Source: Torpedo marmorata
Taxonomy: Eukaryota
NCBI GenBank assembly: GCA_977017645.1
Contig: OZ360223.1
Location: 1,922,001 to 1,986,000, forward strand
DNA: 64,000 nucleotides
Direction of reading: 5' to 3'
In this document: one piece after another, positions 1 to 57,321 of the stretch
Numbering within the stretch: the first letter of the stretch is position 1
How the letters are laid out: every line of letters begins with the position of its first letter
The notes under the pieces: model-generated
Told to the model about the DNA's origin: nothing
Seen by the model: the letters and a program-made list of their open reading frames with translations, nothing else
The model's database searches: none
Made by a program: the position numbers and the translations under genes

Positions 1-3000
1 TTCAGGGCCAGTAGTGTCGCTGTCCATACTGTGGCGTTCTCCCTCTCCACCTGTCCGTTCCCCCGTGGGTTGTACCCCATGGTCCTGCTGGTAGCGATGC
101 CTCGGGTCTGCAAGTGCTGTCGCAGCTCCCCGCTCATGAACGCAGACCCCCGGTCGCTGTGGACATAGCTGGGGAACCCGAACACGGTGAAAACCTGGTG
201 GAGAGCCTTGATAGCCGACGCCGCCGAGGTGTCTGGGCAGGGGATGGCAAAGGGGAACCGCGAGTACTCATCGATGATGTTGAGGAAGTACACATTGCGG
301 TTCGTGGAGGGGAGGGGGCCCTTGAAGTCTATACTGAGACGTTCGAACGGGCGGGTGGCTTTGACCAGCTGTGCTCTGTCGGGGCGGTAGTACTGCGGTT
401 TGCATTCCGCACAGACTCGGCAGCTGCTGGTCATGGTCTTGACCTCATCCAGGGAGAAAGGCAGGTTCCGTGCTTTAATGAAGTGGAACAGCCTGGTAAC
501 TCCTGGGTGGCAGAGGTCATTATGTAGGGAGTATAACCGGTCGATCTGCGCGCTGGCGCACGATCCCCGGGATAGAGCGTCAGGGGGCTCGTTGAGCTTC
601 CCGGGCCGGTAAAGGATGTCGTAATTGTAGGTGGAGAGTTCTATTCTCCACCTCATGATTTTATCATTTTTAATTTTACCCCGCTGCTGGCTGTTAAACA
701 TGAAAGCGACGGAGCGCTGGTCCGTCAGCAGGGTAAAATGTTTTCCGGCGAGATAGTGCCTCCAGTGCCGGACAGCCTCGACAATGGCCTGGGCCTCTTT
801 CTCTACCGCGGAGTGCCGAATTTCGGGGCCTTGAAGGGTGCGGGAGAAAAACGCTACCGGTCTTCCCGCCTGGTTGAGGGTAGCAGCCAGTGCGAAGTCC
901 GAGGCGTCACTCTCTACCTGAAAAGGTTCCGACTCGTCCACCGCGTGCATCGCTGCTCGGGCGATGTCCCCCTTTATGAGGTCGAAAGCCTCACGTGCCT
1001 CCGCTGCCAGGGGAAACTTGGTGGACTTGACGAGGGGTCGGGCTTTGTCCGAGTAGTTTGGGACCCACTGCGCATAATAGGAGAAAAACCCGAGGCATTG
1101 TTTAAGTGATTTGGGGTAACGGGGATCGGAAGTTCCAACAGGGGGCGCATGCGGTCGGGGTCGGGTCCAATCACCCCGTTTTCCACGACGCACCCCAGGA
1201 TAGCGAGTCGGGTAGTCCCGAACACGCATTTCTCCTTGTTATATGTGAGGTTCAGCGTCTCGGCCGCCTGTAAGAACTTCCGAAGGTTCCTGTCGTGATC
1301 CTGGCGATCATGACCACAGACGGTGATGTCGTCCAGGTACGGGAAGGTGGCAGTGAGCTTGAACTGGTCAATGATCCTGTCCATCTCCCTTTGGAACACG
1401 GATACCCCATTTGTTACCCCGAAGGGAACGCGCAGAAAATGGAATAATCTGCCGTCCGCCTCGAAAGCGGTGTATACTCGGTCCTCCCGGCGGATTGGGA
1501 GCTGGTGGTAAGCCGACTTAAGGTCGATGGTGGAGAAGACTTTGTATTGAGCAATCTGGTTGACCATATCCGCGATCTTCGGCAGCGGATAGGCGTCCAG
1601 TTGCGTGAACCGGTTGATGGTCTGGCTATAGTCCACCACCATCCGGCTCTTAGCCCCGTTCTTCACCACGACTACCTGTGCTCTCCAGGGGCTGTTACTG
1701 GGTGCAATGATCCCTTCCCCCAGTAAACGCTGCACCTCCGCCTTAATGAATGCCCTGTCCCCTGCACTGTATCGCCTACTTTTAGTTGCGATGGGCTTAC
1801 AGTCAGGGGTCAGGTTGGCGAAGAGTGGCGGGGGTTGGGTCCTTAGTGTGGAGAGACCACAGGTAGTCTGGGGCGTATTAATTAAATATTGGGGGTTAGT
1901 CACAACGATTGGGGGGTGGGGCCCATCATAGTGCATGGTGACGCTACGCAGGTGGCTTTGGAAGTCCAATCCCAGCAATACAGGAGCACACAAACGGGGC
2001 ATGATTAACAACGAAAACTCCCGATATTCCGTGCCCTGTACCACTATATTCGCCACACAACCCCCCCGGATGTCTGTTGTGTGCGTTCCAGACGCCATGG
2101 CCACCCTCTGGCTTACCGGTACAATGGTGAGGCCACAGCGCTGGGCAGTGTCAGGATGGATAAAACTTTCTGTACTGCCTGTGTCGAACAGGCAGGTGGT
2201 CTTATGCCCCTCAACGAGGATGTCCATCATGGATCTGGACAGTTGATGGGGCGCGCTCTGGTCCAGCGTCACGGATGCCAGGGTCGAGACGAAGTCTTGA
2301 TCTTGATCCGGTGGCAGCTCCCGTAGCTCGTACGTGTCGCTACGAGGGGGTGGAGCCGGGAGTGCTGGAAGTGCAGCGGTGAGATTATAAAATGGCCGCG
2401 CCGGAAATGTAGAGATCGGATGTGTGGACCAAGATGGCCGCCTCCAGTCCTCGCACGAGGTCTCCTCAGGAAGTGACGTCGGGTAAGATGGCCGCCCCCT
2501 CCCGTCGCACGTGGCGCTGCTGGAAAACGGAAGTGCTGCGCGCTGTGATGGCTGCCTCCAGACCTCACACGAGGTCTCCGCCGGAAGTGGAGTCGAGTAA
2601 GATGGCCGCTCCCGTACCTCGCACGCGGCGCTGCTCGGACCCGTGCGCGACTTGGAGCGGCAGACCTTAGCATAGTGGCCTTTCTTACCACAGCTAGAAC
2701 AAGTCGCGTCTCGGGCCGGGCAGCGCTTGCGCGGGTGTTTGTCGAGCCCGCAGATGTAGCACTTCTCGGGCTCCCGGGTGATAGCGGCAGCGGTTAACTC
2801 ACGGGTAGCGGCGGGCTCACGGGCAGCGGGTGCAGCGGCCAACTCACGGATAGCGTCGGATATCGAGTTTCTGCTCGTCGGTAGCCGCTCCGGACGACCT
2901 CACGTAGGCTGTGAAGCAGCGTTGCCACAGTTCAAAATCGCTTGCAGCGTCTTGGGCCAGGGGGTCGATGTCTAGCTTGTCTGGCTTTAACAAATTCTCC

Positions 3001-3285
3001 ATTGATTCGTATTTTGTTGAAACTGTTAATAAAATTGATATGCCTATCAATAACCGACACGAGTCTAGAAGTGCAGGAATTAACAAGGCTTTTATTAACA
3101 GAATCAAAGCCAGGGCTGACTATGCCTTGACCTGATGATCCCTGCTGGATTGTCCCGGAACTGGGGGAGGAGTTGCTGGCTCAAGGCCTTTATTCCAGGT
3201 AAAGGGGGAGGGGTCACCGGGACAGACAGACAGGTCATGGTCATACCTGCCTCAGGCCATAATACATACAAAGTGGTTTACCACA
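1..3285 (-). mobile_element. Ty3/Gypsy LTR retrotransposon A (5' LTR, deleted gag, protease, RT, RNase H, integrase running off the window start)
   Basis: ORF 974-2842 has a CCHC knuckle (CYICGLDKHPRKRC), protease LFDTGS and RT DLKSAYHQ/YLDD. RNase H and integrase (CHPGVTR, VDFKGP) continue after a frameshift. Gag starts near 3002 (MENLLKPDKLDIDP), and about 125 codons of capsid are missing near 2858 relative to element C. Confidence 0.95.
3036..3285 (-). repeat. 5' LTR of Gypsy element A
   Basis: On the minus strand it begins TGTGGTAAACCAC and ends TTATTGATAGGCATATCA, matching the termini of the element C LTRs. Confidence 0.85.
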
Positions 3286-3905
3286 CACAGGCTGACAGGA
3301 ATGTGAAGAATGCCGTCCAGCTCAACTGGAATAAATATCTGAAACACAAGGAAAGCAGAGGCTGGAACCCTGAGTGAATTAAAAACAAAATGCTGGAGGG
3401 ACGGAGCCGGTCATGCCGCATTCACGGAGAGAAGTGGTCAGTCAATGTTTTGGGTCGGAACCCTTTAATCAGACGAAAGTGGAAAGGGGAGATAGCGAGC
3501 ATAAAAAGGGAAAGAAAGTGGAGTGGCTGGGGTTGGGCCGAGGTGAGAGCATACTGGACAAAAGAATGTAGGAGATGTGGAGCAGGAAATCACTCGGGGT
3601 GGGGGGTGTGGTTGAAGGAACGGAAATGTTTGAGAAAGAAGTGAGAAAGATGGAAATAGTGGAGTAAAAACACATCTCATAGCTTGATGAAGGGCTCAAG
3701 CCTGAAACGTCAGTTATGTGTTTTTATCTTTGCTCTATAAATTACACAGTTTGACCTTCTGAGTTTCTCCAGCATTGTGTTTTTACTTCAATCACGGTGT
3801 CTGCAGACTTTTGTGTTTTACTTCCCATGGAAATAGTGGAACTGGATAAAGGTGCAGTTTCCCAAAATTGAAAAAAAACAATGTTCATGCTATTGGGTTT
3901 ATTAA

Positions 3906-5514
3906 CCCTTTGGATTCTGGCCATTTTTAACCTTTCATAATGTATGCTCCAGACTGGGTCCATGGGTAAACTACAGTACGAACCAGCTGGTGGTTGGGTA
4001 TAAAACCAGTCCTGGAAAACGGGGACATGGAGTATATGCACTTGTTGGTGGTCCCTAAAAACTGGGACACGGAGTATATGCACTTGTTGGTGGTCACTGA
4101 AAACCGGGGCACGGAGTATATGCACTTGTTGGTAGGCCCTGAAAACTGGGACACGGAGTATATGCGCTTGTTGGTGGTCCCTGAAAACTGGGACACGGAG
4201 TATATGCGTTTGTTGGTGGTCCCTGAAAACTGGGACATGGAGTATATGCGTTTGTTGGTGGTCCCTGAAAACGGGGACACAGAGTATATGCGCTTGTTGG
4301 TAGTCCCTGAAAACGGGGACACGGAGTATATGCACTTGTTGGTGGTCCCTGAAAACTGGGACACAGAGTATATGCGTTTGTTGGTGGTCCCTGAAAACCG
4401 GGACACGGAGTATATGCACTTGTTGGTGGTCACTGAAAACCGGGGCACGGAGTATACGCGCTTGTTGGTGGTCACTGAAAACCGGGACACGGAGTATATG
4501 CACTTGTTGGTAGGCCCTGAAAACTGGGACACAGAGTATATGCGCTTGTTGGTGGTCCCTGAAAACTGGGACACGGAGTATATGCGTTTGTTGGTGGTCC
4601 CTGAAAACGGGGACACAGAGTATATGCGCTTGTTGGTAGTCCCTGAAAACGGGGACACGGAGTATATGCACTTGTTGGTGGTCCCTGAAAACTGGGACAC
4701 GGAGTATATGCGCTTGTTGGTGGTCCCTGAAAACTGGGACACGGAGTATATGCGCTTGTTGGTAGTCCCTGAAAACCAGGACACGGAGTATATGTGCTTG
4801 TTGGTAGTCCCTGAAAACGGGGACACGGAGTATATGCACTTGTTGGTAGTCACTGAAAACCAGGACACGGAGTATATGAGCTTGTTGGTAGTCCCTGAAA
4901 ACTGGGACACGGAGGATATGCACTTGTTGGTAGTCCCTGAAAACTGGGACACGGAGGATATGCACTTGTTGGTGGTCCCTGAAAACTGGGACACGGAGTA
5001 TATGAGCTTGTTGGTAGTCCCTGAAAACTGGGACACGGAGTATATGCACTTGTTGGTAGTCACTGAAAACCGGGACACTGAGTATATGCGCTTGTTGGTA
5101 GGCCCTGAAAACTGGGACACGGAGTATATGCGCTTGTTGGTGGTCCCTGAAAACTGGGACATGGAGTATATGCGTTTGTTGGTGGTCCCTGAAAACTGGG
5201 ACACGGAGTATATGCACTTGTTGGTAGTTCCTGAAAACTGGGACACGGAGTATATGTGCTTGTTGGTGGTCCCTGAAAACTGGGACACGGAGTATATGCG
5301 CTTGTTGGTGGTCCCTGAAAACGGGGACACAGAGTATATGTGCTTGTTGGTGGTCCCTGAAAACCGGGGACACCGAGTATATGCGCTTGTTGGTGGTCCC
5401 TGAAAACCGGGGACACCGAGTATATGCGCTTGTTGGTGGTCCCTGAAAACCGGGGACACCGAGTATATGCACTTGTTGGTAGTCCCTGAAAACGGGGTCA
5501 CAGAGTCCAAAGGG
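3906..5514. mobile_element. Non-autonomous piggyBac-like element (MITE) filled with a minisatellite
   Basis: TIRs CCCTTTGGATTCTG (3906) and CAGAGTCCAAAGGG (5501-5514) are flanked on both sides by TTAA. Confidence 0.85.
4012..5497. repeat. 42-bp minisatellite, about 35 copies
   Basis: Unit ctgaaaactgggacacggagtatatgcacttgttggtggtcc. The last units are 43-bp variants. Confidence 0.97.
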
Positions 5515-28629: not shown

Positions 28630-28738
28630 GCTTCTGTGGAGTTGAGCTGCTTTCCAGCAGCCATGAAGAGTGAAGTTCGAATCAAGGCTTTCACGACACC
28701 TGAAAACATGGAATTGGGTCACGTACATAAAATGGAAG
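28630..28738 (+). CDS. IL17RC: IL17RC-like exon (ASVELSCFPAAMKSEVRIKAFTTPENMELGHVHKME)
   Basis: TAG/GTGAGT boundaries, phase 0/1. Strong match to GSVVYDCFEAALGSEVRIWSYTQP. Confidence 0.92.
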
Positions 28739-28817
28739 GTGAGTCCATTGACAGAAGGCAGTGTTATGATTCTTTCTTCCAAGGCTGTGAACCACCAATA
28801 CAAGTGTGTTCATTATG

Positions 28818-30706
28818 ATGTGGGAAGGGAGGTGGATGGAATGTGCCTGCCGCACACCCAGTGGAGACAGACGTACATGTGGGAAGGGAGGTGGATGGAA
28901 TGTGCCTGCTGCACACCCAGTGGAGACAGACGTACATGTGGGAAGGGAGGTGGATGGAATGTGCCTGCCGCACACCCAGTGGAGACAGACGTACACGTGG
29001 GAAGGGACGTGGATGGAATGTGCCTGCCGCACACCCAGTGGAGACAGACGTACACGTGGGAAGGGAGGTGGATGGAATGTGCCTGCCGCACACCCAGTGG
29101 AGACAGACGTACATGTGGGAAGGGAGGTGGATGGAATGTGCCTGCCACACACCCAGTGGAGACAGACGTACACGTGGGAAGGGAGGTGGATGGAATGTGC
29201 CTGCCGCACACCCAGTGGAGACAGACGTACACGTGGGAAGGGAGGTGGATGGAATGTGCCTGCCGCACACCCAGTGGAGACAGACGTACACGTGGGAAGG
29301 GAGGTGGATGGAATGTGCCTGCCGCACACCCAGTGGAGACAGACGTACATGTGGGAAGGGAGGTGGATGGAATGTGCCTGCCGCACACCCAGTGGAGACA
29401 GACGTACATGTGGGAAGGGAGGTGGATGGAATGTGCCTGCCGCACACCCAGTGGAGACAGACGTACATGTGGGAAGGGAGGTGGATGGAATGTGCCTGCC
29501 GCACACCCAGTGGAGACAGACGTACATGTGGGAAGGGAGGTGGATGGAATGTGCCTGCCGCACACCCAGTGGAGACAGACGTACATGTGGGAAGGGAGGT
29601 GGATGGAATGTGCCTGCCACACACCCAGTGGAGACAGACGTACATGTGGGAAGGGAGGTGGATGGAATGTGCCTGCCGCACACCCAGTGGAGACAGACGT
29701 ACATGTGGGAAGGGAGGTGGATGGAATGTGCCTGCCACACACCCAGTGGAGACAGACGTACATGTGGGAAGGGACGTGGATGGAATGTGCCTGCCGCACA
29801 CCCAGTGGAGACAGACGTACATGTGGGAAGGGAGGTGGATGGAATGTGCCTGCCGCACACCCAGTGGAGACAGACGTACATGTGGGAAGGGAGGTGGATG
29901 GAATGTGCCTGCCACACACCCAGTGGAGACAGACGTACATGTGGGAAGGGACGTGGATGGAATGTGCCTGCCGCACACCCAGTGGAGACAGACGTACATG
30001 TGGGAAGGGAGGTGGATGGAATGTGCCTGCCGCACACCCAGTGGAGACAGACGTACATGTGGGAAGGGAGGTGGATGGAATGTGCCTGCAGCACACCCAG
30101 TGGAGACAGACGTACATGTGGGAAGGGAGGTGGATGGAATGTGCCTGCCGCACATCCAGTGGAGACAGACGTACATGTGGGAAGGGAGGTGGATGGAATG
30201 TGCCTGCCGCACATCCAGTGGAGACAGACGTACATGTGGGAAGGGAGGTGGATGGAATGTGCCTGCCGCACACCCAGTGGAGACAGACGTACATGTGGGA
30301 AGGGAGGTGGATGGAATGTGCCTGCCACACATCCAGTGGAGACAGACGTACATGTGGGAAGGGAGGTGGATGGAATGTGCCTGCCGCACACCCAGTGGAG
30401 ACAGACGTACATGTGGGAAGGGAGGTGGATGGAATGTGCCTGCCACACACCCAGTGGAGACAGACGTACATGTGGGAAGGGAGGTGGATGGAATGTGCCT
30501 GCCACACATCCAGTGGAGACAGACGTACATGTGGGAAGGGAGGTGGATGGAATGTGCCTGCCGCACACCCAGTGGAGACAGACGTACATGTGGGAAGGGA
30601 GGTGGATGGAATGTGCCTGCCACACATCCAGTGGAGACAGACGTACATGTGGGAAGGGAGGTGGATGGAATGTGCCTGCCGCACACCCAGTGGAGACAGA
30701 CGTACA
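28818..30706. repeat. 59-bp minisatellite, about 32 copies
   Basis: Unit atgtgggaagggaggtggatggaatgtgcctgccgcacacccagtggagacagacgtac, nearly homogeneous. Confidence 0.98.
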
Positions 30707-33700
30707 AACCATTGTCATGACTGTGCCCGAATAGAGTTCTGTTAGTAAGGGGCTCATTAATTGAGGATGGGTGGGGTGGCAGGGTTTCTGATGTTCCTCC
30801 ATAAGGCTTGACAGACCAAAGAAGGAATGGGAAGGGCCAAGCATTTGAATGGTGGGAGAAGGGCATGTTTATTTTTGTTTGTCCCTGGGAAAGTTCTCCT
30901 GATCTTTGGAACAGAGGAGGTTGAGGGGAAATGGTTGAGAAGTATAACATCATGAGGAGGTCTGGACAGAGGAAAAGAGAAGGACCTATTTCTCTCAAAA
31001 GACGGGTCCAAAATCAGGGGACATAGATTTAAAGAAATAGATGAACTGATTAGAGGGGAGTTGAGGGAAAACATTTTTACCCAGAGGGTGACAAACTCTC
31101 ACCTGATTAGAGCAGAACCTACATGTGCACTTCTAGAACCATGACTGCAGCTCTAGGAGGTGGGATTGGCTTGTGTTTCTTTTTTGGGCTGTTGTAGCCC
31201 TCTTTTTTCCATGTGTTGTGTATTCTAGGCTAAGATATACACGAGCACACACAGACGTGGTGCTTCATTCATTCTTTATTACTAATCTAAAGATGGTTTC
31301 CAACGCCACACTATATATGTACGTATGACGTCATGCGCGGCATACCAAGCCTGCGTGTATCCACAACACTCTTTTCCCCCCCCCCCACAGAATATATGCG
31401 ATTAAACATGCCCATAGTAACAAGTATGTTGAACTACAGTGACTAAGGATTATGATGGAACTACAACTACAGAGTATATATAATTCGTAATGTAATAACA
31501 TGTCAATTGGCCCAGTCATGGTACATAGTCCCTCAGACGTTCCGGAGGACATCGTTGCCTTTGTGATCTTCTTGGCGGGGCTGCAGAGTCCATCGGGACA
31601 CCTGACGGCTTGTCTGGACTCTTTGCCTTGTCGGGGAAGACCTCCTCCTCCTCCTCCTCGGGGAAGACCTCCTCCTCCTCCTCCTCCTCGGGGAAGACCT
31701 CCTCCTCCTCCTCCTCGGGGAAGACGACCTCCTCCTCCTCGGATAGCTTGGACTGGGAGCTTGGTTTTCGATGAGCACTATTCCAACCTTGGGCTGGACT
31801 GCTTCCCCGGCTCTCTCGATCAGCTGATGTTGATCGTGTTTTATCAATTGTTGTTATAGCAGGGATGTCGTCGTTGACCCAAACTGGAAAATATTGGGAA
31901 TCGTCTGTTGGTAATATCATCATTGGATCATCTACTGCTCTCAATTGGTCGATGTGTTGCTTCCATATGTTATGGAATACGAACAGGGGCTTAGTTTCTT
32001 AATGAAGACGCCTCTTACCCAAGTTTCTTTATTGTCTCTGTAATCTCGTACCAACACTCTTTCTCCCACTTCTCATGATCTGGTCTGCTTAGTTGGAGAA
32101 GTGGATTGTTCGATACGAAGGCCGATATCTGGGTGTACCGCAGAGAGTCGTGTCCTTAAATTGTGTCCAAACATCAATTCTGCCGGTGTTCTTTTTGTTG
32201 TTGAGTGAGGTGTATTTCTGCATCCTGCAAAAAAATTTGTGATTTTGTGATTCCAAGAAATGTTTTGCGATTTTCTAGCTTTCATGGCTTTTTTAAATGT
32301 CTGTACAAAACATTCAGCTTCTCCATTAGTGCTTGGGTGGTAAGGTGCTGAGAGCAAGTGTTGTATACCATTGTTACGCAGAAACACCTTAAAAGCAACT
32401 GATACAAGCTGAGGTCCATTATCTGAGACCAGTTCCATTGGTAATCCATATGACGCAAACATATTTCGTTGTCTTTCAATTGTTTGAATTGTTGTTGTTG
32501 TACGCATGTGTGATACCACTGGCCATTTGGAGTGTGCGTCGACAACAATAAAGAAATTTTCCCCCATGAATGGACCTGCGAAGTCCACATGAATTCTGTG
32601 CCATGGTCGTGACGGCCATTTCCATGGGTTAGCTTTGGCTTGTGATGCCTTGTGTTGCATTTCTTGATAAGTGCCACATCTTCGCACGGTTTGTTCGATA
32701 TCGATATCCATTGATGGCCACCAAACATGCATTCGTGCTAAAGCTTTCATTCGGACCATTCCTGGATGATTGTCGTGTAGTTCTGCAAGCATGTTCATTT
32801 GCCATTTTTTTTGGAATAATCGTCCTGGCACCCCACAATAAACAACCTTCTTCGATAGTTATTTCATTACGTCGTGTATAGTAAGGCTTAAGGTCTGGAG
32901 AAACAGCGTCCCCTTCGGGCCATCCATTCAATGTGAAATAAAGGACTTTTGCCAGTGTCGGTTCGTTTCTTCTTTGCTGATTATTTTCGCTGTAATGGGT
33001 AGGTGGCAAAGTTGTTCTTGGTTAACAGCTGTTGCCTCTGCTGTCCAGTGGATTATCTCTTCCTTCTGTTCAGTTTCAGGTAGGGGTAAACGTGATAAAG
33101 CATCGGCATGTTCGTTTTGTTTTGCTGGTTTATGTTTCAAATCATAATCATAAGCAGCGAGCATCATGGCCCATCTCTGGATTCTTGTCGCCGCTAGGAC
33201 AAAAATGCCCTTTTTAGGACTTAAGATCAAACTCAGTGGCTTGTTGTCAGTCACTAAGGTAAACCTCCTACCATACAAGTACTGGTGAAATCTTTTGATT
33301 CCGAATATTATGGCCAGTCCCTCTTTTTCGAGTTGTGCATAATTGCGTTCACAAGCTGTCAATGAGAGGGATGCATAAGCCACTAGTTGTTCTTCTTTTT
33401 CCGTGATTTGTGACAATACTGTCCTAAACCCACTGGTGAGGCATCCACTGCTAGAGTCACCTCTTTGTTTGGGCCGTAGTGGACGAGCACATTATTGCTT
33501 GAGGTTAATAGTTTCTTTAAACGGTTGAACGCGTCACTTGTTTTTGTATTCCAGTACCACTTCTGGTCTTTTTTTAGCAACTGGTTCAGTGGGTTGCACA
33601 GTGTGGACATGTTTGGAATGTGTTTCCGATAATGGTTGACTAAACCTAAGAATGATTGTAGTTCTGTTCGCTGGGCAGGGTGCTCTGCGGACGGCTTCGG

Positions 33701-36618: not shown

Positions 36619-36866
36619 ATCTGTTGTGTATTCTAGGCTAAGATATACACGAGCACACAGAGACGTGGTGGTTTATTCATTCTTTATTACTAAACTAAAG
36701 ATGGTTTCCCGCGTCACACTATATATGTACGTATGACGCGGCGTAGCAAACCTGCGTGTATCCACAACACCATGACTTTATGAATTAGTGACCGACAAAA
36801 ATGTTTCAAATCCTTTTATTCTCTCCATTTTTTTAAGTGTTCTGGTAAGACTGCCTTTAAGGACTG

Positions 36867-39800
36867 TGTGGTAAACCACTGTAAATACATGTATATATGC
36901 TTATGGTCATCTGGACACGCCCCTTACTGACTGTACCTGCGGCTCCTCCCACAGACCCCTGAATAAAGGCTATTGTGCCACAGCTCCCTCCCCAGTCCAG
37001 CACAGACGACCACCAGGAATGTACATTCATTCCAATGTGAATAAGAGCCTATCAGTTCCTGCTTAATTTCTAGTCTTTGGAGTTATTGATGGTGCATCAA
37101 TTTTATTCACATTGTTTTCAATAATGGATCAGTACCTGAAACCGGAAAAGTTGGAGCTAGATCCTCGATCACCTGAGGCATCCAACTGTTTCGAACACTG
37201 GCTGCGTTGTTTTGAGGCATTCTTGAGGGCCTCCGCTGCTGTTGTCCAATCGGAAGACGACAGACTACAACTACTACATTCCCGGGTCGGGCCCCGGGTG
37301 TACTTGATGATCAGGGACGCTGAATCCTACCAGGAGGCTATGGACACGCTAAAAGGCCAGTACCTGAAGAAGGTAAACCAAGTCTACACAAGACATCTCC
37401 TAGCTACCCGAAAACAGCGACCTGGGGAATCGAGTGATGAATACCTACTTGCCCTGCGAACCCTCGGTTGGGCCTGCAACTGCAAAGCCGTTACGGCCGC
37501 AACGTACACTGAGGACCTCATAAGGGATGCCTATGTTGCCGGTATCCGATCTATCTACATAAGGCAGAAACTTTTGGAACAAGGTGAGCTCGATTTGCGG
37601 AAGGCTGTACACCTAGCGGACACATTAGAAGTGGCCCTCCAAACCATGGACGCGTACTCGGCCAATAGCACAACCACACCGTGGTTGCAGCGGGCGCCGC
37701 CGTCTTGGGACGTGGGAGGGTCACAAGCCTGTGGAACACCGCCATGTTCCGTTATCAACTCGACCACGGCTGCTGTGACCCGCAGCCAGCCGAAGTGCTA
37801 CTTCTGCGGATCGGATAAGCACCCATGGAAACGCTGCACGGCGAAAGACGCGGTCTGCGCTAACTGCAGGAAGAAAGGACACTAGGCGAATGTCTGTAAA
37901 TCCCAACCGCCCGCTAGACCCAGCAGCGCCGCGTGTGAGCAGAGGGCGCCGCCATCTTGGATGATGTCATCTTCCCAACCCAGCAGTGCCACGTGCGAGC
38001 CATGGGGGCCACCATCTTGGACGACGCCATCTTCCCCACCCAGCAGCGCCGCGTGCGAACCATGGGGGCCGCCATCTTGGACGACGCCATCTTCCCGACC
38101 CAGCAGCGCCGCGTGCGAATCCGACAGCGACTCCGTACTGGCCTCCATCACTCTTGATCAAGGGAGTCCCCATCAACTGGCCAGATCGATGATGGACATT
38201 GAGGTGGATGGCCACAGGACGAGCTGCCTTTTCGACAGTGGGAGCACGGAGAGATTTATTCACCCCGACATGGTACAGCGTTACCGACTCGCGGTAACGC
38301 CAGTACGCCACAATGTCTCCATGGCTTCCAAGTCCCACACAGCAGAGATCCGCGGGTACTGTGTTGTGACCCTGACTGTACTGGGCATAGAATATAAACA
38401 CTTTAAGTTATTAGTCATGACACAGCTCTGCGCGGATGTGCTGCTGGGGCTAGACTTCCAATGTCAACTTAAAAGCGTGACATTGGAGTACGATGAGCCC
38501 CACTCCCCTCTTACCGTCTATAATCCGCAGTTTGTGAACCGCCCATTGCAAGTCACCCACAGAAGCTCCCTGGGTCCCCCTCCCATTGCGTCCAACCAGC
38601 GACTCGCCGACCGCGCACGACCTGCGGCCATTCTACCCTCCGGATCACCTCCCCACCATTGTTCGCTAGTCGTACACCCGACTGCAAACCCGTGGCCACC
38701 AAAAGTAGGCGATACAGTGCCGGGGACAGGGCCTTTATCAGGTCGGAGGTGCAGCGGCTTTTGAAGGAGGGGATCATCGAAGCCAGCACCAGCCCCTGGA
38801 GAGCCCAAGTGGTGGTGGTAAAGAATGGGGAGAAGAACAGGATGGTCATCGATTATAGTCAGACCATCAACCGATATACGCAGCTGGACACGTACCCACT
38901 CCCCCGCATAGCCGACATGGTGAACCAGATCGCCCAATACCGGGTATTCTCCACCATCGACTTAAAGTCGGCATACCACCAACTCTTCATCCGACCGGAG
39001 GACCGCCAATACACTGCCTTCAAGGCAGATGGACGCCTCTATCATTTCCTGAGGGTTCCCTTTGGTGTCACCAACAGGGTCTCGGTCTTCCAGTGGGAGA
39101 TGGACCGCATGGTCGACCAGGACGGGCTGCAGGCCACATTCCCATATCTGGATAATATCATCATTTGCGGCCATGACCTACAGGATCATGAAGCCAACCT
39201 CCAAAAATTCCTTCACACCGCCAAGCTCCTCAACCTTACTTATAATAGGGATAAATGCATCTTTGGCACAACACGCCTGGCCATCCTTGGCAGTGTCATA
39301 CAAGATGGAGTGATTGGTCCAGATCCAGACTGCATGCACCCCCTGTTGGAACTCCCACTTCCCCACAGCCTCAAATCCCTGAAAAGGTGCCTGGGCTTCT
39401 TTTCCTATTATGCCCAGTGGGTCCCCAATTATGCGGACAAGGCCCGCCCCTTCGTCAAATCCACCTCTTTTCCCCTAATGTCAGAGGCCCGTGCAGCCTT
39501 CAGCCGCATCAAGGCGGACATCGCCAAGGCCGTGATGCACGCTGTGAACGAATCCACCCCGTTCCAGGTGGAGAGCGATGCGTCCGACTTCGCCCTGGCC
39601 ACCACCCTCAACCAAGCGGGCAGACCCGTAGCTTTCTTTTCCCGCACCCTCCAGGGCCCAGAAATCCAACACTCCTCTGTCGAGAAGGAGGCCCAAGCCA
39701 TTGTCGAGGCGGTGCGGCACTGGAGGCACTACCTCGCCGGCAAACGATTTACCTTGCTAACTGACCAACGTTCAGTTGCTTTTATGTTTAACAACCAACA

Positions 39801-41346
39801 GCGAGGCAAAATAAAAAATGACAAGATACTGAGGTGGAGAATCGAACTTTCCACCTACAATTACGATATCTTGTACCGGCCCGGAAAATTCAATGAGTCC
39901 CCAGATGCCCTATCCCGCGGAACATGTGCTAGCGCACAAATAGACCGCCTACAAGCCCTCCACAGTGACCTCTGCCACCCCGGGGTCACCAGGTTCTTCC
40001 ATTTCATAAAAGCCCGCAACCTACCTTACTCCATCGAGGAGGTCAGGACCATGACCAGGAACTGCCAGATCTGTGCAGAGTGCAAACCGCACTTCTACCG
40101 ACCAGACAGAGCGCACCTGATAAAAGTCACCCGCCCCTTTGAACGCCTGAGCGTTGACTTCAAGGGACCCCTCCCCTCCTCTGACCGCAACGTGTACTTC
40201 TTCAACATTATTGACGAGTACTCACGTTTCCAGTTCGCCATCCCCTGCCCGGACACGACCACAGCCACAGTCATCAAGGTCCTACGCAACCTTTTCACCC
40301 TCTTCGGATACCCCTGCTATATCCATAGCGACCAGGGGGTCCTCTTTTATGAGTGATGAGCTGCGTCAGTACCTGCTGGCCAGAGGTATCGCGACGAGTA
40401 GGACCACCAGTTATAATCCCTGAGGGAACGGGCAGTTGGAGAGGGAGAACGCCACCGTTTGGAAGGCCACCCTCCTAGCCCTAAGGTCGAGAGGTCTTCC
40501 AGTCTCCCACTGGCAAGAGGTACTCCCCGAGGCACTCCATTCAATCAGATCACTCTTGTGCACAGCCACCAATGCCACTCCACATGAGAGAATGTTTTCC
40601 TTCCCTAAGAAGTCCGCTTCAAGGATCACGCTGCCATCCTGGCTGATGTCCCCAGGACCGGTCCTACTCCAGAGGCACGCGAGGAGCCAAAAGCAGGACT
40701 CACTGGTCGAAAGGGTCCATCTCCTCCACGCCAACCCCCAATACGCCTACGTGACGTATCCTGATGGGCGGGAGGACATGGTCTCCGTTCGGGACCTGGC
40801 ACCTTCAGGAGTCCCTGATACCACTGATGACCGCCCTGCCCCCTCCCCACCCACCGCCACCCACGATGCACCCTTACCACGGCAAGTGACACCAGCTCCG
40901 GGGGATGGCTTGCCAGATACTTCGCCGCCACGCATCCACCAAGACAGAGCCGACAACAACACACAGGTGGTACAATCAGGACTGGATGCAACAGCTGCGC
41001 CGTAGCCGGTACTACGACGGTCGCAGCGGCAGACCGGACCACCTGAAAGACTGAACCTGTGATAACTTTAATTCACTTCACCCCACAAGACTTTTTTTAA
41101 AAGGAGGGGTGAATGTTGTAAACCACTGTAAATACATGTATATATGTTTATGGTCGTCTGGACACGCCCCTTACTGGCTGTACCTGTGGCTCCTCCCACA
41201 GACCCCTGAATAAAGGCTATTGTGCCACAGCTCCCTCCCCAGTCCAGCACAGACGACCACCAGGAATGTGCATCCATTCCAATGTAAATAAAAGCCTATC
41301 AGTTCCCTCATAACTTCTAGTATTTGGAGTTATTGATGGTGCATCA
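36867..41346 (+). mobile_element. Full-length Ty3/Gypsy element C (same lineage as element A)
   Basis: 233-bp LTRs at 36867-37099 and 41114-41346 (about 14 mismatches by eye), TSD gactg/gacag, PPT 41101-41113. Gag starts at 37124, followed by protease LFDSGS, RT, RNase H and integrase with a few stops and frameshifts. Confidence 0.97.
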
Positions 41347-46607: not shown

Positions 46608-46619
46608 GTATGTGTCAAC

Positions 46620-47137
46620 TGTAAGAGCCATAGGCTTGATTACTTACCTTCATCGCGGCGTTCCGATGTATCCAGCGGGTTACGGAGGAGTTACAGAGAT
46701 TAGTAGGCGATGCGAGGCCTATTGAGTACTCTGCGCATGCACGGGAGTGCCGACTGGAGCATGCGCAGTGGGGAAGTGGGTGGAGCATGCGCGGTGGAGT
46801 ATGCGTGTTAATCAGGGAAGAAGTATTATAAGAATATGGCAACCTAGAGGAGGGTGAGTGAGATCGCCATAGCTTTCATTGCCCATTTAAAGGAATTTAT
46901 AAAGAATTATTTTAAAAGAAGTTTAAAGACATTTTAAAGAATCGTTATTAAACATCGTTATCAAGAATTGTTTATATTTTGTTAAAAGAAGATATTTAAG
47001 TCATTGAAGATTGCTACAAGTCATCATGTGTAAATAAAGTTTTGAATCTATTGGACTTGTTAATAAATTAATTGAAATGCGTCAAGAACAGATATCTCAC
47101 CTAGCCTCCAAGTGACTATTGGATTGAAGTCACTATA
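46620..47137 (+). mobile_element. Solo LTR related to the BEL element LTRs
   Basis: Similar to 56437-56977, with a 5-bp TSD TCAAC. Confidence 0.9.
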
Positions 47138-50220: not shown

Positions 50221-51291
50221 AAGTGATCCACAAGCAACTTTTTCCCAACGTCCTCACAGATATTAGATACTTCAAGGTTCAAACATTGTGGGATCTCTGT
50301 CACCAACAGAACTAAGTGTCTAGAAAATGGATGCATGTTAGAAGCAATGGACTGGATCTTGCTGGTTAATGTCCATAATTCCAAACATAAATGCTGATAT
50401 TTACCTATATAATTAAGTCCAGGACTTCCATGTGGAGTCCACCAGCAGGGCCTAATCTTGCTGAGATTCCCCTGCATTTATTATAGAGGATCGCCTCTTG
50501 GACACTGTGACTGGTCAGATCTGCTATTGGATCTGTAACCTGAGGATTGTAGGGTTTCGTCTTGGGAGGTGAAGGGTTAGTTATACTTTGAAAATTATTT
50601 AGTGTTTTCAATTATATATGTGTTTAGGCATTTTTGTTTACTATTTAAATGTTTCATAAATTTCCAGGTTAAGCAGGATTAGCAGGGGGGAATGCAGGCA
50701 TGTGTTTCCTCTTGGGGCTACTGGGTCAGCAAGGTATGACCCAGTACAACTGATTGTGGTAAACTGATAAAACTGGTATATTCACTGTTCTATTGGGGGT
50801 GGAAGAGCTAAAGGCTCGTTTCTTACCTTCATTGCGCCGTTCTGATGGTCCCAGCGGGTGTCGGAGTGTAGTAGGCCATGTTAGGCACAGGAGTACCGAC
50901 GGGCGCATGCGCAGTGGGTAGCTGGCTGGAGCATGCGCGATGAAAGGGTGGCTGGAGCATGTGCGGTGGAGCATGCACGATGGAATATGCGCGCAAATCG
51001 GAAAGGAAGTATTATAAAAACATGGCGACGTAGAGGAGGGTGAGTGAGATCGTCATAGTTTTCATTGACCGTTGTAAAGGAACTTTATAAAGAATCGCTA
51101 TTAAGAATCGTTATTAAAGAAAGTTATCGTGGATTGTTCATATTTCGTTAAAGAAGATATTTAAGTTATTGAAGATTGCTACAAGTCATCGTGTGTTAAT
51201 AAACATTTTGAACATATTGGACTTTGTTAATAAATTAATTGAAACGCGTCAAGAACAAGTGTCTCACCTAGCCTCCAAGTGACTATTTATT

Positions 51292-51971
51292 GGTACATAA
51301 TTCCCTGAAAGTTGAGTCACACGTAGATAGGGTGGTGAAGAAGGCATTTGGTGTGTTGGCCTTCATAAATCAGAGTATTGAATATAGGAGTTGGGATGTC
51401 ATGTTGAAGTTGTATAAGGTATTGGTGAGGCCAAATTTGGAATATTGTGTGCAGTTTTGGTCGCCGAATTATAGGAAGGATATAAGCAGAATAGAGAGAG
51501 TGCAGAGGAGATTTACAAGAATGTTGCCTGGGTTTCTGGGTTTGAGTTACAGGGAAAGGTTGAGCAGGCTGGGACTTTATTCCCTGGAACGTAGAAGGTT
51601 GAGGGGTTTTTAAAATTATGAAGGGGACAGATAGAGTCAATGTGGACAGGCTTTTTCCATTGAGAGTGGGGAAGAATCAAACAAGAGGGCATGGATTGAG
51701 ATTGAAGGGGGAAAAGTTTGGAGGAAACATGAGGGGGAATTTCTTCACTCAGAGGGTGGTGGGAGGGTGGAACGAGCTTCCGGCCGAAGTGGTAGATGCA
51801 GGTTCAATTTTAATGTTTAAGGAAAAGTTGGATAGGTATATGGACGAGAGAGGTGTGGAGGGTTATGGGCCGGGTGCGGGTCAGTGGGACTAGGTGGGAG
51901 AAGGTGTTCGGCATGGACTAGAAGGGCCGAACTGGCCTGTTTCTGTGCTGTAATTGTTATATGGTTATATA
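51292..51971 (+). mobile_element. CR1 3' fragment inserted in the BEL 5' LTR
   Basis: LYKVLVRPNLEYCVQFWSP...TRGH and a (gttatatg)-type tail. Absent from the 3' LTR. Confidence 0.92.
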
Positions 51972-52443
51972 TGAAGTCACTACATTTTAGTCAATGAAAA
52001 CTTTATTGTTTGGAACGGAAAATTGAAGAATAGAAGATAGAATAACCTCTCTGTTCTTTGGATTGATATTTAAAATAAGATGGTGGCCATCTTGGAAATG
52101 CCTCGAGTTAGGGGCAGTTTGTAATCCACATCCATCTGCCATGAGTAACAGCCAGAGAGGGATTCAGAGATTCTAATCTTATAGTAAAGTATCCTATAAA
52201 CACGTTGGTGAAACCATTTCTTGAAAATCAGCGATATTATTGACGGATGCTGTGGTGGAAACTCGTTTGTGAATAGCAGCACATTACAGCCATCTGAAGT
52301 GGTAGGCATAAGTCTGTGGACTCCTTCTGTGTATCTTTGGCAAATTTGAACACAGTTTGGATTTGCCGCCGCTAGTCCATTGGGGACTGTTGATTTGGCT
52401 AGTGTTGTGTATGCTCGAAGGACGGTGGAACAAAACGAGTAAA

Positions 52444-55400
52444 ATGGCCGCAGCAGCCGCTGATGTTGCTGTTGAGGAACAACGTATTGAAGACATGAAG
52501 GTTGTGGATCTCAAAGAAGAATTGAGGCAAAAGAAACTAGATACAAGTGGAAATAAAAATGTTCTCATTGCAAGACTGAAGCTGGCAAAAGTAGAAGAGG
52601 CGGTGGCTTCGATTGATGGGAATGAAGACATTTTGCAAACTCATTGCAGAAGACAACGACTGAACATGAAGACAGCAACGTGGAAATGGTTGATGATGTG
52701 TCACCAAATGGTGATGAAGATGAAGAAAACGAAGAGGATGAAGATGTAAAGGATGTACAATTCGAATTGGTGAAAGAGTTAAGTAAGAAAAATACAAGCA
52801 TGTGACAGTGTCTCAAATGTTGAAAGCAGGAGAAGCAATCAAAGTTCTTCTGGTTCAAGCTCCAGAGTTTCTCGTACTTCAAGTTCTGCATCGTCACGTA
52901 CAAAGATTGAAGCTGAATTGGCCGCTCTTCTTGTACGACAAAAATCGCTTAAGGATAAACATGTTTTAGAAGAACAGGAGGAGCAGCTAAGAGGACAGGA
53001 GGAACAGCTAAGGCAGAAACAGGAGCAGCTAAGGCAGAGCCAGAAGCAGCTAAGAGAACAGGAGGAGCAGCTAAGGCAGAGCCAGCAGCTAAGGAACAGC
53101 CAGGAGCAGCTAAGACAGAGAAAGGAGCAGCAGGAGCTGGAAGCAAACATTGCTATTGCTAGGGCCAGAATGAAGGTACTAGAAGGCTCAATGGTATCTG
53201 GTGCTCGGAGTAAATTATCTGAAGTGTGTGATGATAAGAAGTCATATTTTAAAAAAGAGCCACAGGAAAATAAACCAACCAAAAAGGGAGTAGATATTTT
53301 AGTACCACGGGTACAAGACTTGCAAATACAAGGACAAAGCCTCCCAGAGCATGGTGTTATCAAGTCACATGTACCAGTGGTAACATCCGAAAACAAAGAT
53401 GCGGCTTGGGTTCAGTCAAACGATGCAGCTTCCTTGACATTCGAGTCAAGCATCAGAAATATGGGAGAAACTACACCAGTGAAGGTTTCCAGATACATTA
53501 CATGTAACAAGAGGCGGTGAACAGAGCAATGTATTATCATCCATGGAAAGACAAAATGAAATCGCTGCATCATTGATTCAGTTACAGTCTCTCTCTTCTT
53601 TTCCCAAGAAAGAGAGACAAACTTTTTATGGTGATCCACTTCAGTACCAAGCGTTCATGAGATCTTTTAGACGCAATATTGAAAATAAATGCCAAGACCC
53701 TGATGAATGTTTTTATTATTTGGAAATGTTTACAAAAGGATAGCCAAGGGAACTTGTAAAGAGTTGTCAACATATGTCCTCGGATAGAGGATTAGAAAGA
53801 GCTAAGGCTTTACTAGAACAACATTTTGGCAACAAGCATCGAATTGCTTTAGCTTATATGGATAAAGCTCTTAAATGGACATCAATAAAACCGAATGATG
53901 TAAAAGCTCTACAAGCATACACGCTCTTTTTAAGAGGATGTTGTAATGCCATGGAAGGTATCGATAATATTCGTGAGCTTGACGTGCCTGGAAATATGCG
54001 AATCATCTTAGATAAATTACCTTACCGGATGTGGGATAGATGGAGAAATTTGGCTTGTGATTTCCAGGAAAAATACAATCAAAGAGCTACCTTAAAGGAT
54101 TTGGTAGATTTCCTTGAACGACAGGTGTACATTGAAACAGATCCAATATATGGAAATACCAGAGACACTTCAATGGGGAACAAAGATGTAAGGAGGTCTA
54201 ACTCACAGTCTAGTCCGAAATTTAAAAGGAGTAATTTTGCTACTACTGTGTCAGTTATAAATAAAGAAAAAGATAAAGTAAATAAGGAAAAGGAAAGTTT
54301 GCCTGATGAGAAGAGTTGTTTGTTCTGTAAAGGTGGACATGCTTTGGAAATGTGTTTAAGGTTAGAAAAGAAGGAACATAATGAGAAGATCGCTTTCTTA
54401 AAGGAAAAAGGAGTATGTTTTAGCTATCTGTGTCAAGGGCACATCAGTAAAAACTGCGAGAAGCGAATTAACTGTAACAAATGCAATTTGAAGCATCCTA
54501 GAATGTTGCATATCCATCAAAGAAACAAGGAATTGGAAAAGGAGCAAACAGAAACAAAGGAAACATCAGAAAACAATGTTACAACCTCGGTTAAGACAAG
54601 TGGTCTTACCGGGGCCGGTGTGGATAACTGCAAACTTTCAATAGTGCCTGTACAAGTCAAGACCAAGAAAGGGGCTGCAACAGTACATACATGTGCATTT
54701 TTCAATCCAGGCAGCACTGCATCTATTTGCACGGTGGGACTAATGAACAAACTTAATCTTCGGGGAAGAAGGTCGAGGATTATGTTGAAAACCATGGGAC
54801 AAGAAAAGGTAATTGAAACCAGCATTGATTCAGGCTTAGAGGTTTCTGGATTGCATGACAAAGAATTTTATGATCTTCCAAGTTTATACACTCAGAAGAC
54901 TATGCCTGTGCACGAAGGAAACATTCCACATAATAATGATATCCATCATTTGTCTTATCTGTGGAAGGTTTATAAACCTGAAGTTAATTGTGAGGTAGAG
55001 ATGCTGATTGGTTCAGATGTACCAAAGGTTTTGGAACCACTAGAAGTAATACGGAGTAGGGTAAATGGACATTATGGTATTAAAACCAAGCTTGGTTGGA
55101 CGATTAATGGACCATTAGAAAGAAATAATGATATTGCTCAGGAACAGTTAGCGATAAATGTAAACAGGATTTTGGTTGTGAAATTTGATGAGTTAAGGGA
55201 AGAGCAAAAGATTGTAAATAAGAAAGTCACTTTTGAAGAAAAGAAAACAAATCAATGTGAAAATAAATCAAAGGTATTTAAAACAACATTGAAGGAATTA
55301 TTTTCATCAGAAATGGATGAAAATGAAGTATTAGAAGATGTTACAAATAATACTAGTGATTATTCCTGTGTAATTGAATCTGAAGCAGGACTAAAACAAA

Positions 55401-56233
55401 TGACTGAGAACAAATTTGAAAGTAGCTTTTGTAGCTCAGAGGTTACAGCAGACAAAGTCAATGAAGAAATGTTGCAACATGATGCAAAACAGGCAAAAGA
55501 AGAAAATTGCACTGATGGAATAAGGAAGCATGTGACTGACAATTTAATGCAACTGTATTCAGAGAACAAAATATTGAAAAGGGAATTGGAAATATTGGAT
55601 AATCATGAAAAAAGTAAACAGAAAGATTTAATTGTAAATAAAATTCACAAAGCCAGAAAGCGGAAGAAAATAATAACTGCTGAAGAAATAAATACAGTTA
55701 TTGAGGAAAGAGATTCAGCATTATCAAGATGTAAAAGGTTGGAGGAAGAGATTCATCTTTTGAAAGAGAACAAGTTATTGGTTAATTACACAAAACAGCT
55801 GACTGTAGAAAACAATCAAGAATGTAAATTGAAGGTTCAGCTACTAACAATGCAGAAAGAAAGTGATATTTCATTGCAGCAATGTAACAAGCAAGATGAA
55901 GAAATTCAAACATTTCAAGTTTACCACAGCAGGGTTGACAATAGAAATATCAATGTATCACATGATCTTTTCACTTCAGATCAAGTTGTTAATTTCTCAG
56001 AAGAAAATGAGACTGAATTGAAAGTTGCAAAATTGGATTTGGAATTGCAGGAAAAGGCAATAGAAACCAGAGTGGTTGAAAAGACTGCAGTTTTAGTTAA
56101 AGTGAAACGACATGCTGAAGAAGTACCTCATGTTAAATTCAAAAGGAAAACTGTATCTATTTTGTCTGAGGATGATTTGAGGTTTACTGGTGGACGTTTT
56201 AACTCAAAGATTCTGGAGATAGAGGAACTTTGA
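52444..56233 (+). pseudogene. Chimeric SAP-gag-protease-MIPOL1-like reading frame of the BEL element (frameshifts and stops in the 5' third; 53774-56233 open)
   Basis: SAP motif at 52483-52590, BEL gag from about 52800 and MIPOL1-like segment at 55625-55930. Confidence 0.8.
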
Positions 56234-57321
56234 TAAGTACAAACTGACTGCATTTTGTTATTTTTGTATACTACACAGGTTACAGACTTTATTGATCCAG
56301 AGTGATGGTAAACTCTGGTCTTATGAAGAAAGAAGATTTGTATATTGTTTGAATGTTATATGTTTATTTTTATTTGTAATTGATTGTGCAATTATTATTT
56401 AAGACATTGCGTCTCATTATAATAATTAGGGACCGGTGTAAGAGCCAAAGGCTCATTTTTTACTTTCATTGCACAGTTCTGATGGTCCCAGTGGGTGTCG
56501 GAGGAGTACCGGAGTTTAGTAGGTCATGCTAGGCCTATTGACTACTCTGCGCATGCATGGGAGTGCCGACGGGCACATGCACAGTGGGTAGGTGGCTGGA
56601 GCATGCGCGATGAAAGGGTGGCTGGAGCATGTGCGGTGGAGCATGCGCGGTGGAGTATGCGCGCGTATTGGAAGGGAAGTATTATAAAAACATGGCGACG
56701 TAGAGGAGGGTGAGTGAGATCGTCATAGTTTTCATTGACTGTTATAAAGGAAATTTATAAAGAATCGCTATTAAGAATCGTTATTAAAGAAAGTTATCGT
56801 GGATTGTTCATATTTCGTTAAAGAAGATATTTAAGTTATTGAAGTTACTACAAGTCATCATGTGTTAATAAACATTTTGAACATATTGGACTTTGTTAGT
56901 AAATTAATTGAAACGCGTCAAGAACAAGTGTCTCACCTCGCCTCCAAGTGACTATTTGTTGGATTGAAGTCACTACAGGGGGTATCATGGAGGCAACACA
57001 CTCACTGATTGTACAATTTTTGATCAGGTTGTCTTCTAATTGGTAGATATAACTAAGGAATAATTGATATCAAGTCATTTTAAAATCAAAATGGAAGAAA
57101 TATTGTAGTGAAGATGATGAGATAGAGGTTGTATTGCTTATGATTGCACTGATGCACATGGTCGATAGGTTCTGGTAAATAATCAGTACATATTAATATT
57201 GGTCTGGATATTTATTGCTAGAATGATTACAAACAGCTGCATTCAATTGTAACAAAATGCAATATATTTTTTAAATGTTTGTCACTGTCAAAAGTTTTAC
57301 TTTGTTTTCTCTTTGATCCAG

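Follow-up and report, generated by a model that had tools for sequence, protein, structure and literature searches.

Strong covariation in an RNA duplex at the primer position of a large Gypsy lineage of animals: a probable self-primer

A large lineage of animal Ty3/Gypsy retrotransposons carries at its primer site a strongly covarying RNA duplex between the leader and the element's own long terminal repeat (LTR), which most likely serves as a self-primer. Two members of this lineage, elements C and A, occur in the 64,000-nucleotide stretch of the Torpedo marmorata genome that we analysed (hereafter, the window). LTR elements all require a primer at this leader position and, by analogy with Tf1, these compact, single-ORF, chromodomain-less elements probably use a segment of their own LTR as the primer for reverse transcription.

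Both strands of the duplex can be followed in element C (Table 1), which is flanked by GACTG/GACAG, a 5-nt target duplication with one mismatch. Its LTR ends in CA and is followed by a single A (37100) and then by TTTTATTCACATTG at 37101-37114. The complement of TTTTATTCACATTG occurs in the 5' LTR at 37033-37046 with one change, which gives a G-U pair in RNA, and again in the 3' LTR at 41280-41293 with a different change, a true mismatch. In element A, which is encoded on the minus strand and whose 3' LTR falls beyond the window, the 12 nt of leader 3034-3023 match the complement of LTR segment 3101-3090 without a mismatch. The paired LTR segment (the arm) ends 53 nt (C) or 54 nt (A) before the LTR end, and the pairing spans leader positions +2 to +15 in C and +2 to +13 in A. 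A sequence-only reading of the window had described this arrangement as a lack of the TGG primer site, with an own-LTR complement in its place, compensatory changes between the two elements and a pairing strand whose 3' end faces U5. Its coordinates hold, the arm sits where a primer must sit, and the two paired positions that differ between A and C do so on both sides. The contrast it drew with elements B and D of the same window is likewise sound, as their leaders begin with TGG and have self-LTR complements of just 6 and 4 nt, respectively.

Element D (LTRs at 31211-31369 and 36619-36770) has the opposite orientation to element C, and approximately 100 nt separate its 5' LTR from the start of C. 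The window also contains another LTR element, E, at 50798-56975 (+), and a solo LTR at ~46618-47135. The 5' LTR end and primer site of E are deleted, its gag, without Pfam match, is presumably BEL/Pao-like, and all three LTR copies bear a splice-donor-like GTGAGT soon after a TATA-like box (46847, 51033, and 56703). Two long tandem arrays are present as well, with 59-nt units ~98% alike (28700-30750) and 42-nt units ~90% alike (3880-5400).

Table 1. Features of elements C and A in the window (a slash in AAA/RCC marks the arm end).
Feature	Position	Strand	Basis
Element C 5' LTR, 233 nt, TG...CA	36867..37099	+	Self-BLAST, 94% identical to 41114-41346
Element C candidate promoter 1: upstream AATAAA (TATA-like) and, 32 nt later, CCAGTCC (initiator-like)	36962..36998	+	Kept in own-genome family representatives
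Element C candidate start site 2: initiator-like TCATTCC immediately 5' of the arm	37027..37033	+	Sequence; CATT/GATT/TGTT alike in other own-genome families
Element C LTR arm, predicted self-primer, with poly(A)-type hexamer and one G-U position in this copy	37033..37046	+	Complement of 37101-37114; covariation in 150 copies
GCCT directly 3' of the arm: predicted cut site AAA/RCC and 5' strand of second helix	37047..37050	+	RCC in 27/28 family representatives; folds
U5 inverted repeat ATTGATG/CATCAAT across the LTR end	37085..37101	+	Sequence; motif 33,649 times genome-wide vs 1 control match
Element C primer-binding position, no TGG, complementary to LTR arm from +2	37101..37114	+	Sequence comparison, covariation
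Element C gag-PR-RT-RH-IN, split over four frames	37124..41005	+	ORFs, Pfam
Polypurine tract plus TGAA preceding element C 3' LTR	41099..41113	+	Sequence
Element C 3' LTR, including its copy of the arm (41280-41293)	41114..41346	+	LTR pair
Element A gag-pol with a partial deletion in gag, cut off by the window start	3..3002	-	ORFs, Pfam
Element A primer-binding position, perfect complement of arm	3023..3034	-	Sequence comparison
Element A 5' LTR, 250 nt	3036..3285	-	LTR comparison
Element A LTR arm, 12 nt	3090..3101	-	Complement of leader

The family is abundant in its host. A pattern limited to the end of U5 and the nine initial bases of the leader identifies ~33,650 junctions in the 6.2-Gb genome (6,642 + 27,007 matches, versus 0 and 1 control matches). 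We sampled 100 of these pattern loci and 60 loci selected through gag, that is, 158 distinct loci after removal of two duplicates. The motif AAAA/GCCT, independent of the leader, served to anchor 150 of them (including one false anchor, L335, retained in the counts), and the eight loci devoid of it were dropped. Duplex positions 1-7 hardly vary, and on the leader side the sampling pattern had in part fixed them, whereas positions 8-14 vary freely. Over the latter, 967 of the 1050 cells are Watson-Crick pairs, 17 are G-U, and 66 are mismatched, with a mean pairing of 6.45 out of 7 versus 3.39 (maximum 3.85) across 1000 permutations. All four pair types are found at position 8, transversion swaps are frequent in the arms, and pairing ends sharply, position 15 being at chance level (14/150 copies versus 14.8 expected). 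Eighty-five copies are perfect over 14 nt, as 19 distinct 14-mers. Of the 55 anchored copies selected by their gag protein, 54 keep 12-14 pairs of 14 (5 of the 60 have no anchor). Relatedness alone does not explain the covariation: when the tree is inferred from sequence outside the arms, both arms have 41 parsimony steps in common over the seven positions (12, 8, 1, 4, 5, 7, and 4 per in-register position), versus an off-register mean of ~1.9 per position. This covariation proves pairing, not priming.

A second LTR was found in 15 of 20 longer stretches; most of these elements are flanked by 5-nt duplications and have the purine tract seen in C. In four copies (L231, L279, L119, and L272), the 5' LTR arm fits one subfamily and the leader another; the leader of L272 is matched by its 3' LTR arm and not by the 5' one. 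These copies are possibly recombinants or unresolved heteroduplexes.

The lack of a TGG site in A and C is shared by the other leaders compared: TGG is absent from the first five nucleotides of all 56 distinct leaders, and the best tRNA complement is 4 nt long in a partial set of 28 tRNA genes. That set spans only nine isoacceptors, and priming by half-tRNAs has been described in Copia lineages (PMC6317226), so one might consider that a half-tRNA, or some other small RNA of the host, is the primer and that the LTR match is incidental. Such a host primer is nevertheless extremely improbable: at least 19 perfect leader 14-mers coexist in one genome, each tracking its own LTR, a diversity that no single host RNA can match, and Rfam yields no match in the region.

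Relatives of these elements are widespread. At E<=1e-100, a search with the polyprotein of one relative retrieved 786 proteins. They are encoded as single ORFs of ~1200 aa, and their names include Trichuris, Armadillidium, and Actinostola. The nearest named gag relatives, with 48-60% identity, come from the shark Mustelus asterias, a Protein Atlas search with a relative's gag retrieved only unnamed arthropod clusters, and the viral and phage collections searched contained no relatives. The named relatives (Mustelus, Nesidiocoris, and the three genera above) are known here from proteins, and the distant duplexes from metagenome and bin contigs. Metagenomes and the contaminant contigs of prokaryote genome bins yielded 93 loci, of which 61 lacked a gag start and one lacked upstream DNA. 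The 31 remaining loci, with ~44-60% protein identity, represent ~15 families, and the duplex is present in 25 of the 31 loci. In 19 it is perfect over 10-16 nt from +2 (0/1000 shuffles each), and six more have 12-13 of 13 pairs with anchors placed by hand; it is absent in the other six (L161, L164, L166, L192, L199, and L202). Cross-pairing of arms and leaders between different distant families mostly reaches 2-8 nt, and the near-identical L128 and L131 are separated by one two-sided swap. These surveys also provided nine sister compact polyproteins with 36-44% identity (P0167, P0170, P0175, P0187, P0191, P0193, P0200, P0205, and P0275) and 13 bacterial-bin contigs (L201-L213) with eukaryote-type Gypsy retrotransposons, probably host contamination, L212 having a 1510-aa open frame with a chromodomain.

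Adding 13 own-genome families of our choice to these 15 distant ones, we observe that the arm ends with AAA in 28/28 families, immediately followed by RCC in 27/28, and that position -10 is a G in 15/15 distant and 12/13 own-genome families. What stays constant is thus the junction motif and the register in which the duplex meets the primer position, and not the poly(A) signal. The overlap of the pairing strand with AATAAA, also pointed out in the sequence-only reading, stands for the host genome, where the arm ends with AATAAAA in 13/13 family representatives, but not for the lineage as a whole, as A(A/T)TAAA is missing from the arm in 7/15 distant families; in L121, L123, and L204 a separate hexamer lies downstream of the arm.

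RNA folding agrees with a structure specific to the 5' end of the element, with z-scores of -4.95 for C and -5.0 for A (0/200 shuffles equally stable) and of only -1.25 for the same stretch at the 3' LTR of C, where the leader is absent. A second helix after the arm has a mean stem of 4.5 versus ~3 in shuffled sequences, with few families individually significant; the U5 inverted repeat competes with it in the folds, and both are weak in single families. A fold restricted to the 5' LTR, together with the hexamer present in the arm of all own-genome representatives, could also mean that the duplex is merely a regulatory RNA structure, hiding the 5' LTR poly(A) signal or acting in packaging or translation, and that another primer is used. 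Hairpins that mask the 5' poly(A) signal are known in retroviruses. However, given the distant families without hexamer in the arm, the function conserved across the lineage is not poly(A) signal masking. In addition, the duplex always occupies the primer position from +2, which leaves no free site for another primer, and the rarity of G-U pairs and frequency of transversion swaps also speak against a purely regulatory role, which we deem unlikely.

The complementarity, its fixed register from +2, the covariation, the G at -10, and the AAA/RCC junction are established properties of this lineage. Under self-priming, folding of the 5' end of the genomic RNA would bring arm and leader together in a duplex, which would stack on the second helix starting at RCC(U). 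The element's RT/RNase H (an RNase H domain is detected in its pol by Pfam) would cut after AAA at the helix junction and produce a 3'-OH pointing into U5. Minus-strand DNA would then copy U5 and the short remainder of R before jumping to the 3' LTR, and the primer would itself be copied during plus-strand synthesis and so restored to the primer site, coupling both arms. The copying of the primer into the plus strand belongs to the general biology of LTR elements. The concerted change of the arms, the few G-U intermediates, and the sharp stop at ~14 nt would follow from such copy-back, and the subfamily swaps also fit it. In own-genome families, folding and cutting would, as a secondary benefit, disable the 5' LTR poly(A) signal. 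The earlier proposal of self-priming analogous to that of Tf1/sushi is thus supported by the covariation, its persistence in distant relatives, and the absence of TGG and chromodomain, from which we infer the priming itself. Several observations count against it: the duplex of only 12 nt in A, the weak second helix, the six distant loci without duplex, and the record of LTR-LTR junctions. Among 66 such junctions in the own genome, three retain leader pieces (10, 12, and 26 nt) and none retains a piece of 15 nt ending exactly at the duplex end; the ten junction contexts that we viewed resemble nested or tandem insertions. Thirteen of the 66 (e.g., L404, L405, L420, and L429) join the 3' LTR end and the last 7 or 9 nt of the polypurine tract to another LTR start, reflecting either recurrent insertion into the polypurine tract of sister copies or a cDNA by-product.

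Where transcription starts matters for the origin of the primer. In own-genome families, candidate start motifs lie ~4 and ~38 nt upstream of the arm; the upstream AATAAA/CCAGTCC pair was not seen in distant relatives, and the start-site motif profile of the 15 distant families shows a T-rich edge but lacks a TATA at constant spacing. The primer could also derive from the element but act in trans or come from the 3' R, for example as a short transcript of the LTR, or as a second copy of the genome whose processed 3' end lies at AAA. Were the RNA to start far upstream of the arm, such a primer would make an internal cut unnecessary. It would also explain the same covariation, since the arm occurs in both LTRs. 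Yet intramolecular pairing across 23-69 nt is strongly favoured, nothing points to a transcript end at AAA/RCC and, with the hexamer inside the arm in own-genome families, poly(A) cleavage is expected downstream of the arm. We consider this origin of the primer very unlikely.

The lineage has the characteristics of Ty3/Gypsy elements, namely an LTR pair, a target duplication, a polypurine tract, and the gag-PR-RT-RH-IN order; its best solved relative is the Ty3 RT/Pol, and Pfam detects protease, RT, RNase H, and integrase in full-length relatives. The absence of chromodomain suspected from the window is borne out: PF00385 was found in 0/7 full polyproteins at E<=0.1 (the control L212 scores) and not among the precomputed domains of 120 listed relatives. 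The GPY/F or Tf2-type SH3 domain (PF24626) was likewise found in 0/7 full-length relatives (control P0235, 5.7e-40), and Pfam matched neither domain in the frames of element C, including the C-terminal one. The lineage thus lacks both of these domains that define Tf1/sushi. RT-RNase H trees recover the duplex-bearing elements as one clade (support 100), which is nested in a larger clade of compact elements (99) and lies apart from CsRn1-like, Mag-like, and Gmr1-like elements and from P0235 (SH-aLRT 99-100). These trees include two RTs of P0235, the sole reference with chromodomain and SH3, itself unnamed, and no named Tf1 or sushi sequences; the AU test does not reject a topology that forces the clade and P0235 together as sisters (p=0.387). 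The grounds for placing the lineage outside Tf1/sushi are its domain content and a single chromodomain reference, the unnamed P0235. RT-RNase H identity to B, D, and integrase-first elements, which from their motifs we take to be CsRn1-like, Mag-like, and Gmr1-like, respectively, is 26-34%.

In the own genome, we detected 15 chromodomain matches, and none of the 12 fetched adjoins a pol gene; a DUF4939 search gave no match, its positive control being also silent. Those Tf2-type SH3 matches whose domains could be ordered are integrase-first elements. An abundant family with integrase before RT occurs in this genome (L346-L370), and a first look gave 41,875 Tf2-type SH3 candidates. The lineage may correspond to an already named metazoan clade, for example MolGy; the separation shown here is from B, D, and Gmr1-like elements. 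Its peptide motifs matched no clade name in the literature text available or in five supplementary files of PMC6238403. The named metazoan clades Mag A/B/C, CsRn1, Gmr1, Cigr-1, Tor2, MolGy1-16, and Saci2 share superfamily and host range with our lineage (PMC6238403).

Gypsy self-priming is regarded, in the sources available, as a hallmark of Tf1/sushi chromoviruses, with experiments in fission yeast. The Tf1 duplex is 11 nt long. Unlike it, the duplex of our lineage spans 12-16 nt, with conserved G at -10 and AAA/RCC and a leader of ~15-45 nt. Other differences from Tf1/sushi concern, besides the two missing domains and the separate RT clade, the arm, which often bears a poly(A) hexamer and may be internal instead of being the RNA 5' end, and the folds, with a strong central duplex and no evident third (U5-leader) one, unlike the three-duplex pretzel structure of Tf1-type priming. 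As to the similarities, the Tf1/sushi elements Tf1/Tf2 (Schizosaccharomyces pombe), Tj1, and Tosmo1-3 also have no tRNA site and a primer position complementary to the 5' LTR, and self-priming has been described in Tf1/Tf2 (PMC10085805, PMC4600332), where the RT performs the cut (PMC5341516). The leader-LTR duplex with flanking helices described for Tf1-type priming (PMC10085805) recalls the predicted adjacent helices of our lineage, U5 inverted repeat included, and the Ty3/Gypsy domain order is shared. In plants, self-priming has been predicted from leader-LTR complementarity of at least 10 bp in Tcn1, a Gypsy chromovirus, and in TAR, a Copia element that takes the trait outside chromoviruses too (PMC6317226); both differ from our lineage in their hosts and in resting on complementarity. 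Skipper of Dictyostelium and the fungal GalEa also have no TGG site, and unconventional priming has been proposed for them (PMC5006619, PMC6934838), but Skipper has a polypyrimidine stretch without LTR complement and GalEa a hairpin in the internal region. In the open full-text literature searched, self-priming is not described for any animal Gypsy clade other than chromoviruses, although Repbase, GyDB, or subscription papers may contain an earlier description.

Tentatively, we propose that a widespread animal Gypsy clade might have evolved tRNA-free priming independently of Tf1/sushi, cutting its primer from inside R at G -10/AAA/RCC, here through the poly(A) signal. A single cut would then provide a primer and avoid premature 5' polyadenylation, and each round would rewrite the site from the LTR, so that site and primer would drift in concert, free of any host RNA. 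The lineage thereby bears on the question of whether hairpin priming is ancestral or has arisen repeatedly. The many natural compensated variants and the invariant positions indicate where the cut probably falls and open the mechanism to direct tests. If self-priming is true, annotation tools that require a tRNA site would overlook such elements, which would also escape silencing by tRNA fragments directed at primer sites, and tRNA-free priming would be common in animals, to judge from the names of the relatives (sharks, insects, isopods, nematodes, and cnidarians).
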